Origin: a virus | Strand: one strand, 5' to 3' | DNA length: 64,000 nucleotides | IMG/VR virus record: IMGVR_UViG_3300024239_000016 | Coordinates: 1 to 64,000 of that record | Shown here: in pieces, positions 59,252 to 62,877 of the stretch | Layout: the number at the start of each line of letters is the position of its first letter | How positions within the stretch are numbered: position 1 is the stretch's first letter | The notes under the pieces: model-generated | What the model was told of the DNA's origin: nothing | The model's database searches: none | The model's input: the letters and a program-made list of their open reading frames with translations, nothing else | Translations under genes and position numbers: made by a program

Positions 59252-59294
59252 ATACATCACTACCGGGCAATGCCCGGTAGTGATGTATTTTTTT
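59252..59294 (+). terminator. Rho-independent terminator
   Basis: ATACATCACTACCGGGCA-A-TGCCCGGTAGTGATGTAT plus T tract. Confidence 0.8.
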
Positions 59295-59352: not shown

Positions 59353-59733
59353 ATGAACAACCGACGCATTCGTCTCAAATCAATTCGCGCGAAGCTTTAT
59401 AAAGAGAACTGTATTATTCCGACCATAATCAGGAATGGTAAAGTCCTACGCAGAGCTCAACTGCGTTACGCCTACATCGAAAGCCGCCCACGTAAAAACA
59501 ATAAATCAAAACACAAATACGATACCTTTGCACATATCACATGCCCAAGTTGCGATGGCTTTGCTAGTCAGTACCGCTATGCCGAAACCGAAGAAGAACA
59601 AGCATATGAAGAAAAACAAATGTTGAAGCGCGGAGGCATTTTTCCGTATGCTGACATGTACGCATGTCGTGCAAAAATCGGCAATGGTGTATGTAGTAGC
59701 GGTTATAGCAACAAGCGCTATCGGTTTTCTTAG
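59353..59733 (+). CDS. Basic hypothetical protein with a possible Zn site
   Basis: 126 aa, CPSC and C..C, R/K-rich N-terminus. Confidence 0.65.
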   Translation: MNNRRIRLKSIRAKLYKENCIIPTIIRNGKVLRRAQLRYAYIESRPRKNNKSKHKYDTFAHITCPSCDGFASQYRYAETEEEQAYEEKQMLKRGGIFPYADMYACRAKIGNGVCSSGYSNKRYRFS

Positions 59734-59790
59734 TGATTTAATTCGCAGCACATTTATGTGATGTAAAGTAACAAACAAAGGGCACCTGCT

Positions 59791-60361
59791 AATAAACTAT
59801 CGGTAGTCAACGTGGCTGGCTATTAGAAATAATACCACGCTGCGATGGCGTAACGATAGAGTCGAAAGAAGCATAAAACATCTATTCATTTTGGCACGCG
59901 TAAAACCTTAAAAAGATAGATGGGTGAATCTGTTCAAAGTCGGCGAATGCTGCGTCCGTTAGGACACGCTAACGCCGAGCCAAAACAAGTTGTCCTATTC
60001 AGCCTAACCTACCTTTAGTCGGATGTACTTGACCGGTAGTATGGCGGGGATGTAAATGCTAGTTCAGGTAAAACACTACGGTGTAACTAGAATCTCGGGA
60101 GAGATCTAAAGACAGGCATTCTTGTGAGGTGTAGAGAGATGATGGACAGGACCTAAGTCTGCTGGCGATGATGTTTGTCGTTAAAACGAAGTTAACTCGA
60201 TAGTGATATGGATAAATTGCCTATCATGATGACCGTGTTAGCGTAAGGAAGCAGATATGGTAAAGGCGATCTCCGGACTACAACAATAGATGGACATGAC
60301 GCGTGCGTTGCGAGACAGCACAAATCACATACATCTCTGATCGTCGTAAGACGATGTAGTG
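59791..60361 (+). ncRNA. Group I intron ribozyme (IC3-like core), no ORF
   Basis: P1 CTGCT 59786-90/GGTAG 59802-06 with U.G; P2 CATCTAT/ATAGATG; P3 CTGTTC 59930/GGACAG 60144; P4 TCGGCG/CGCCGA; P6 GCC/GGT; P7 G(A)GAGAT 60134/ATCTCC 60269; P9 ACTACA/TGTAGT then terminal G 60361; P10 AAACT/AGTTT. Confidence 0.82.
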
Positions 60362-60498
60362 AGTTTCCTTAAACTAAAAGTGCATCCCAGTGCTGGCCTT
60401 ATTAGCATTGCGTAGCCTGACAGCGTAACAGGTTAATTCTAGTTAAAGAAGAAAGTGCTCATGGATTAATACTAGGTAATCGCATCCATGACAGATGT

Positions 60499-60583
60499 GC
60501 CCAGGTGGCGAAATTGGTAGACGCACCAGATTTAGGTTCTGGCGCCTTCGGGTGTAGGGGTTCGATTCCCCTCTTGGGCACCA
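60499..60583 (+). tRNA. tRNA-Leu(TAG)
   Basis: Cloverleaf, CCAGA-TT-TAG-GT-TCTGG, long variable arm, encoded CCA. Confidence 0.95.
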
Positions 60584-60585
60584 AA

Positions 60586-60673
60586 GGAGATATGGCTGAG
60601 TGACTTAAGGTACTCCCCTGCTAAGGGAGCGTACAGAAATGTATCGTTGGCTCGAATCCAACTATCTCCGCCA
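60586..60673 (+). tRNA. tRNA-Ser(GCT)
   Basis: Cloverleaf, CTCCC-CT-GCT-AA-GGGAG, long variable arm, G73, CCA; T-loop CTCGAAT. Confidence 0.92.
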
Positions 60674-62309: not shown

Positions 62310-62877
62310 CATGTGCTCGCTATTGTCTGAATAGTAAAGAAAGCACGGACTTACTGAGTCCGATAGTGAGGCAGTCCTGCATTGTCGTCAGATCAAGGCC
62401 TATTCATGATAGGTACAGTTTGACATCAGACTCTGGCAGTTAGGCTGATCAGAAGTGGAGCCGTGATAGTTCCGGATTTCGCAAAACCCTCAGATTACTT
62501 CTGTGGTCAGATGCGAGAGATGATGGAGTACCAGTGTCGAAGAGTGTGCGAGGGTGAACCTAGCGCTCTTAAACGGTCGACTAAATCAGAACTGATATTT
62601 GGCTATCGGCGATGAGGATTGGTTTAGAATCATGCCAATGTTCGAAATCCAAGTTCAAGGAGTTTATTGGGTAGTGATGAGAGAACTATCCTAGATACGT
62701 TTTCTCATCACTAGAACAGACGACATCCAGGCGAAACTGGGTTAAGTGAACTAGACCCACCAATCCATAGCACATAGGTGAATACGCACTCCCTTAGGTC
62801 TAGAGTGTCAGTAGTTCGCGCGGACTACCTCGACAGCATCGCCCTTGCAAAGCGGTGCTGTCCTGGAAGTGCGCATG
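62310..62877 (+). ncRNA. Candidate large (~570 nt) structured ncRNA
   Basis: Ends pair (CATGTGC/GCGCATG); more than 12 helices, some with crossing long-range pairings; ends 7 nt before tRNA-Pro. Confidence 0.65.

Follow-up and report, generated by a model that had tools for sequence, protein, structure and literature searches.

Nucleotides 59778-60375 of the window (by which we mean the whole 64-kb stretch of DNA analysed here) are best read as a domesticated, non-splicing group I ribozyme with a P1 helix that was moved to a position 3' of the catalytic core. The element has a group I fold and is homologous to tRNA introns of the IC3 type, it lacks a host gene, its guide strand is complementary to a triplet downstream of the core, and the same arrangement recurs in other phage elements. 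The probability that it is a complete IC3 ribozyme, derived from the introns of phage tRNA genes, which forms P1 with the 3' triplet and cleaves itself after U60369, is in our estimate about 0.45; both the pairing of the guide with the downstream triplet to give P1 and the cleavage at this site are inferred from the comparisons described below.

Genomic setting and absence of a host gene

The window spans positions 1-64,000 of an IMG/VR phage record of 194 kb, which is ~73% complete and encodes split RNA polymerase subunits of the phiKZ type. The element lies at the start of a tRNA island, between an orphan ORF of 126 aa (59353-59733) and the gene for tRNA-Leu(TAG) at 60499. The flanking features are:

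59252..59288, + strand: strong hairpin resembling an intrinsic terminator, closing the preceding unit
60499..60583, + strand: intact tRNA-Leu(TAG), followed by tRNA-Ser(GCT)

Scanning from the hairpin at 59252-59288 onward, we found no terminator ahead of the tRNAs. The ORF directly upstream of the ribozyme codes for a basic, Cys-rich protein; a search of 5.8 billion proteins returned no homologue for it, Pfam and PHROG gave no match, and the small flanking ORFs likewise matched no family in either collection. Related loci sought through the flanking proteins were not found, so that orthologous synteny could not be used. The element itself was unmatched in a BLAST search against a phage database. 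Between 59734 and 60498 there is no ORF longer than 43 aa on either strand, and this region folds better than shuffled sequences (z = -2.2).

An earlier note on this DNA had described an intact group I intron that lacks a homing-endonuclease ORF and whose host is neither an mRNA nor a tRNA. On the last two points we agree. No homing-endonuclease ORF is present inside the element; ARAGORN, allowing for introns of up to 1500 nt, detected no split tRNA around either this copy (copy 1) or its paralogue (copy 2, see below); no ORF and no known RNA is interrupted; and no Rfam family extends across the flanks. In the positive control, ARAGORN found the host tRNA of every control intron, including introns of 527-740 nt.

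In a metatranscriptome from compost, contigs map to the non-coding elements of the island (59932-60157, 62350-62767 and two parts of copy 2) and, at low depth, to none of the ORFs in between, a weak hint that RNA of the element accumulates. The sequencing-run contigs show no joints, starts or ends at the element, the RNA run consisting of contigs only, and the DNA contigs that carry the element are partial. The region at 62310-62877 of the window is a structured, ORF-free stretch of ~570 nt that ends at tRNA-Pro and has no match in Rfam; a metatranscriptome contig of 418 nt covers its positions 62350-62767 with 5 differences, and the stretch may represent another large phage RNA.

Detection and structure of the group I core

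The Rfam group I model RF00028, recommended in the earlier note as a check by Infernal, did not match the element at the gathering score or at E <= 10 on 1 kb, and found nothing across the whole genome. We did not take this as absence of a group I core because RF00028 also misses the true tRNA introns L025, L101, L039 and L064. Its failure is due to large inserts and an altered P7; ornate group I RNAs of phages escape the standard Rfam model and are probably under-counted.

Short blocks common to both copies were recognised as what we take to be an IC3 core of the Azoarcus type. As an independent test, a 14-nt block comprising P4'/P6 was scanned in viral contigs, and the loci that also showed the J6/7-P7 block were then checked: eight of the loci selected in this way sit inside tRNA genes according to ARAGORN in intron mode, and six are passed by RF00028 at exactly that place. 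The P4 block scanned alone recovered only L039, and a pattern scan of genome contigs gave chance matches only. A pattern for a P7 variant found nothing in viral contigs and 83 contigs in metagenomes, 68 of which represent tRNA-Leu(UAA); the 83 compact tRNA-Leu introns served as an outgroup and not as orthologues. Loci L236-L318 constitute a homogeneous family of compact IC3 introns in tRNA-Leu(UAA), mostly from JGI (Ga-numbered) metagenome contigs, whose P7 reads GAGUG/CACUC and not the usual GACUA/UAGUC; the sequence of P7 is therefore free to vary in true introns.

From 21 compact tRNA-hosted introns (viral loci and metagenome contigs, the elements of the window being excluded) we constructed an alignment in which RNAalifold recovers P2-P9 with 28 compensatory pairs, and from this a covariance model, R1, which thus represents only tRNA-hosted IC3 introns placed by ARAGORN. 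With filters off, R1 matches 59927-60149 with 46.1 bits (E = 5.7e-13), covering P3, P4, P5, P6, J6/7, the 5' strand of P7 and P3', with an insert of 128 nt in P6. It matches copy 2 with E = 3.4e-12; the next best match in 76 kb has E = 0.4, and the two copies are the only matches in the 194-kb genome. The earlier claim of a full group I core of the IC3 kind found in tRNA-Leu is thus confirmed. P7 was checked by pairing since a covariance model cannot nest it: it consists of five standard pairs (60136-40/60269-73), the first of which, G60136-C60273, is the guanosine-site pair, and P7 covaries in hosted introns. When the elements that lack a host (orphans, see below) were aligned with hosted introns under guidance of the model, 96% of the cells were paired, compared with 76% for shuffled and 27-43% for slid sequences; 32 of the 47 pairs, including all six pairs of P3, showed compensatory changes. 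The orphans reach the same core scores as hosted introns. The IC3-type group I core of the element is real, and its helices P3-P9 pair and covary with those of true introns. The parts of copy 1, together with the predicted cleavage site, are:

59778..59782, + strand: guide (IGS-position) strand; GGG 59780-82 adjoins P2, as in hosted relatives
59783..59926, + strand: ornate P2 domain; P2 is 59783-86/59923-26; the apical part carries conserved GUAGUC and GUAA motifs
59787-90/59870-73, + strand: P2a, covarying in ten relatives
59797-802/59854-59, + strand: P2b, covarying in ten relatives
59879-59921, + strand: hairpin P2.1, inside the P2 domain
59930..59935, + strand: 5' strand of P3, with its partner at 60144-60149
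59936..59978, + strand: J3/4, P4 (59940-45/59973-78), J4/5, P5 hairpin and J5/4
59979..60130, + strand: P6 (59979-81/60128-30) with the 128-nt peripheral insertion
60131..60149, + strand: J6/7, 5' strand of P7 (60136-40), J7/3 and 3' strand of P3 (60144-49)
60150..60261, + strand: P8 (60151-53/60259-61) with a large peripheral extension
60262..60273, + strand: J8/7 and 3' strand of P7 (60269-73); G60136-C60273 is the conserved first guanosine-site pair
60277..60360, + strand: P9 (60277-81/60356-60), enclosing two peripheral hairpins
60361..60366, + strand: linker of six nt after P9; G60363 is at the omega-G position of hosted introns
60362..60375, + strand: 3' hairpin with a 5-bp stem and a 4-nt loop that holds the triplet; alternative to guide pairing
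60367..60369, + strand: CCU, the complement of guide bases 59780-82, in which U60369 faces G59780; cleavage is predicted after 60369
60376..60498, + strand: rest of the leader up to the tRNA, not conserved in other members

Hosted relatives and the P2 domain

The closest relatives of the element are ornate introns in phage tRNA genes, namely in tRNA-Leu(UAA) at L039, L320, L064 and L086 and, as judged from a reading of its exons, in tRNA-Arg(UCU) at L322. These hosted introns and both copies share a P2 domain of fixed architecture, in which the guide is followed by a P2 of 4 bp, a P2a of 4 bp, an A-rich joiner, a P2b of 4-6 bp and the motifs GUAGUC, GUAA and GAAAG. For P2a, seven members have ACCG/CGGU, copy 1 has UGCU/AGCA, L086 has AGCG/CGUU and L064 has ACG/CGU, and for P2b seven different sequence pairs occur among ten members. 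In the peripheral loops of two of the hosted introns, in P2 of L086 (minus strand, about 2410-2310) and in P5 of L322 (6925-6990), putative tRNA-like inserts with D-loop and T-loop motifs were noted by eye. Permuted tmRNA genes are located in the tRNA islands of two large phage contigs, at L039:12137-12508 and L057:983-1442, both of which also bear ornate tRNA introns.

The P2 domain bears directly on the proposal of the earlier note that a self-splicing intron, 59791-60361, is removed from a small ncRNA by means of a P1 with U59790 opposite G59802 and a P10 between 59794-98 and 60362-66. This P1 can form 5 bp (-4.1 kcal/mol) and G60361 does follow P9, but both of its strands belong to P2a and P2b, the helices for which ten relatives show covariation: in P2a, U59790 is the last base and pairs with A59870, and G59802 closes P2b by pairing with C59854. 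We therefore reject this P1; the GGUAG contained in it is a conserved motif of hosted introns, where it does not act as the guide. The suggested P10 has no counterpart in relatives and shows no covariation, and the terminal G, placed at 60361, is set at 60363 by homology and by the R1 alignment. A closure of the exon element by GGGCAC/GTGCTC is absent in the other members, L321 having only 14 nt before its tRNA, and the hairpin thought to arise by exon ligation is really an uninterrupted hairpin 3' of the ribozyme, which is present in all six orphans. What stands of the intact intron is a genuine IC3 ribozyme; its supposed 5' splice site falls into helices of the P2 domain, and no credible guide partner is found upstream. 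Excision of such an intron is contradicted by the comparative structure and appears very improbable. A further alternative in the same note, a ribozyme kept for processing the tRNA transcript, comes close to our best reading.

Orphan elements in other phages

Four further elements, on other phage contigs, resemble copy 1 and copy 2 in their ornate core and have no host tRNA. The resulting set of six orphans is:

Copy 1: followed after 135 nt by tRNA-Leu(TAG)
Copy 2: paralogue 4.5 kb downstream; followed after 125 nt by tRNA-Ser(TGA)
L321: followed after 14 nt by tRNA-Arg(UCU)
L323: followed after 23 nt by tRNA-Met
L333 (complete 47-kb phage): followed after about 75 nt by an ORF
L349: preceded by a terminator hairpin and followed after about 30 nt by the RBS of a receiver-domain gene

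Each of the six heads a transcription unit; a tRNA comes next in four cases and an ORF in two. Copy 2 (L002:5245-6125, genome about 64245-65125) is located beyond the window and has a 5' domain of ~370 nt. A BLAST comparison of the two copies yields a match of 15 nt only; P3, P7, P2b and P9 of copy 2 are unlike those of copy 1 in sequence and retain their pairing, P2, P3, P7 and P9 being kept by compensatory changes, and the joining regions are intact in both copies. Judged from the sequences, this compensation between paralogues speaks for selection that acted on the fold once the elements had become orphans.

It is conceivable that the orphans are neutral or decaying relics, tRNA-type introns which lost their exon context by rearrangement in a fast-changing tRNA island and have no catalytic use. 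Several observations are in line with this view. L326 (5797-5945) and L335 retain only the first 30 nt of an orphan, identical to L321, between two intact tRNAs, tRNA-Ser(TGA) and an intron-less tRNA-Leu(TAA); these are deletion relics, and orphan elements can therefore also be lost. In a poorly resolved tree of the core blocks the orphans do not group together (AU p = 0.011 against a single clade, for a short alignment with long branches), and the core blocks of L321, L323 and L333 are nearly identical to those of hosted introns, so part of the class may be young. In addition, the omega position is occupied by G in all 21 hosted introns and is not conserved among the six orphans, where both copies have a G, L349 and L333 have an A or C instead, and the position is shifted in L321 and L323. 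However, a decaying relic does not account for two paralogues which share no more than a 15-nt BLAST match and still keep every core helix, through compensation, and all joining regions, nor for orphan core scores as high as those of hosted introns; RNA contigs covering the element likewise speak against it, as does the arrangement of guide and triplet described in the following section. We therefore regard decay as unlikely.

The guide and its downstream complement

In five hosted ornate introns the three bases 5' of P2 are GAG or GGU. Taken as the guide, they predict the triplet with which the 5' exon of the tRNA ends, 6-13 nt upstream and with a U.G pair marking the splice site; this agreement in the five hosted introns validates the assignment of the guide. 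The guide of the orphans is GGG in copy 1, copy 2, L321 and L349 and GCC in L323 and L333. In all six, the triplet predicted by it (with G.U at position -1) is found 7-9 nt after the P9 strand, whereas none of the five hosted introns has its triplet starting at position 7 after P9. The guide/triplet combinations are GGG/CCU in four cases and GCC/GGU in two, the wobble being kept and the other two pairs exchanged; the complementarity thus comes in two independent sequence states, and the six elements are related by descent. The triplet is located in a hairpin loop in every orphan, with five different stems among the six.

Upstream of the core the situation differs between orphans. The 40 nt upstream of 59780 in copy 1 contain no credible partner for the guide, only UUU at 24 nt, and for L321 no upstream partner is conceivable. 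The other four do have a possible upstream exon triplet, CUU for copy 2 and L349 and GGU for L323 and L333; some of these four may therefore still splice. Neither of the features that define an intron, pairing with a 5' exon and a host gene, was found when copy 1 was tested for them. A constrained fold of copy 1 spontaneously forms a helix between 59778-82 and 60366-70, which stacks on P2 in the usual place of P1. The guide of copy 1 can pair either in this way, with 5 bp, or shifted by one, in which case it meets CCU 60367-69 with G59780 opposite U60369. The latter P1 is only 3-4 bp long and has as competitors the 3' hairpin and the register shifted by one, which offers 5 bp and places C-G, not U.G, at the site.

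A model for one-step self-cleavage

According to the reading that we prefer, the ribozyme sits outside any gene, in the 5' leader of a transcript that carries tRNA-Leu(TAG) and tRNA-Ser(GCT). The guide (59780-82) would pair with CCU 60367-69 in the hairpin loop, which places the substrate strand of P1 3' of the core, and self-cleavage would occur in one step after U60369. The simplest chemistry would be that of the first splicing step on its own, with guanosine or GTP in the intact P7 site as the attacker; the alternative attacker would be water. The reaction would sever the ribozyme from the downstream pre-tRNA, and attack by GTP would add an extra G to the new 5' end. An element working in this manner would have lost the need for omega-G and would have retained the catalytic core and the guanosine site. 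It is possible, if doubtful, that the orphans represent a class of one-step leader ribozymes characterized by a P1 relocated to the 3' side, a downstream 5' end tagged with G (triphosphorylated in the case of GTP) and accessory modules such as a mimic of the ribosomal L1 stalk.

Cleavage at omega, after G60363, would also release the downstream RNA, either by 3' splice-site hydrolysis not followed by ligation or by branching as in lariat capping, with the 2'-OH a few nucleotides downstream as the attacker. Both copies have a G at the canonical omega position, and the succession of omega-G, a few nucleotides and a strand that pairs with the 5' end of the ribozyme resembles the layout of the lariat-capping ribozyme (PMC8637638). 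However, the core is that of an ordinary IC3 ribozyme, the Rfam model of the lariat-capping ribozyme (GIR1) is not matched, and the A, C or shifted residue in L349, L333, L321 and L323 means that cleavage at omega cannot be the mechanism common to the set. We consider it highly unlikely.

The 5' peripheral domain of copy 2 contains a 72-nt module (L002:5510-5581, genome 64510-64581) that resembles the L1 stalk, matching positions 2135-2206 (helices 76-78) of bacterial 23S rRNA with 50.4 bits (E = 6.5e-13); it retains the conserved loops and carries compensatory changes in its helices. In the ribosome, the L1 stalk binds protein uL1 and the tRNA elbow, and the module may be a mimic of this binding site. 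Such a module would suit a fold that is reused without self-cleavage, as a protective 5' domain or as a trans-acting or binding RNA for a tRNA or a ribosomal protein, and the terminal helix linking the 5' and 3' ends and the apparent accumulation of the RNA would be in keeping with this role. A mere scaffold, however, would need neither the catalytic joining regions nor the guanosine-site pair, which are kept exactly, and the L1-stalk module is absent from copy 1. Reuse as a scaffold is thus quite unlikely. If a ribozyme class of the preferred kind exists, its L1-stalk mimic could dock the tRNA elbow or protein uL1.

Comparison with known ribozymes

With the IC3 introns in the anticodon loops of tRNAs (cyanobacterial and plastid tRNA-Leu(UAA), Azoarcus tRNA-Ile and phage tRNAs) the element shares the core blocks, helices P2-P9 with the guanosine-site helix, a guide located directly 5' of P2 and the lack of an ORF, and the phage representatives (L039, L320, L322, L064, L086) have the same ornate P2 domain. 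In contrast to these introns, it has no tRNA exons and no upstream guide partner, it is located in a leader, the complement of its guide follows 7-9 nt after P9, omega-G is not conserved throughout the class, and RF00028 does not detect it.

In its mode of action the element would be nearest, by analogy, to the lariat-capping ribozyme, which is described in PMC8637638 as a group I descendant that caps a downstream mRNA, and whose 5' end, according to the same source (citing Nielsen 2005 and Meyer 2014), pairs just after the reaction site. Both are located upstream of the RNA to be released, and the one-step reaction that replaces splicing in GIR1 is predicted for the element. However, GIR1 of twin-ribozyme introns has undergone remodelling of its core and depends on omega-G and a 3-nt lariat fold, whereas the core of the element is ordinary IC3 (the Rfam GIR1 model gave no match on it at E <= 10), and the host of GIR1 is eukaryotic rDNA whereas that of the element is a bacterial virus. 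The bacterium Clostridioides difficile has a group I ribozyme that was domesticated in a 5' leader and interrupts no coding or RNA gene; as outlined in PMC3984707 (section 10) and PMC9481103, a 5' UTR there combines a c-di-GMP-II aptamer with a group I ribozyme and the site of guanosine attack decides the fate of the downstream RNA. That ribozyme still splices under control of the aptamer, whereas copy 1 has no upstream 5' splice site and no riboswitch family was matched in 59600-60600.

A non-canonical order of the reactive elements along the RNA is also seen in naturally permuted self-splicing RNAs, among them the ND5-717 group I intron of coral mitochondria, which undergoes back-splicing, and circularly permuted group II introns, according to PMC6545197 and PMC8637638. 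These RNAs produce circles or reorder exons in two steps, whereas back-splicing of the element to a circle is not feasible because only 6 nt separate omega and the P1 site. Back-splicing to a circle via GTGCT at 60446-50 was considered and rejected, the pairing being absent in the other members. Like ROOL and GOLLD, the element is a large, ornate, ORF-free RNA adjoining phage tRNA genes, but its fold is that of a group I ribozyme; neither ROOL (RF03087) nor GOLLD (RF01998) matched in the window, and the control, a ROOL RNA at L032, scored 322 bits. This ROOL RNA (L032:2870-3473) lies ~1.3 kb 3' of a tRNA-Leu(UAA) gene with a 740-nt group I intron, which contains an ORF with an HNH-like Cys motif.

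Full-text searches of the literature returned no account of group I ribozymes that stand as orphans next to phage tRNAs. To our knowledge, nearly all known group I ribozymes are selfish introns, and we know of no domesticated exceptions other than the lariat-capping ribozyme and the single allosteric ribozyme of C. difficile. If our reading is correct, the recurring phage class would represent a third route of domestication, in which an ordinary IC3 core is kept, free of a host gene, in front of tRNA or mRNA transcripts and the guide is matched by a downstream triplet, and it would offer a simple system for studying how a splicing ribozyme turns into a processing ribozyme.
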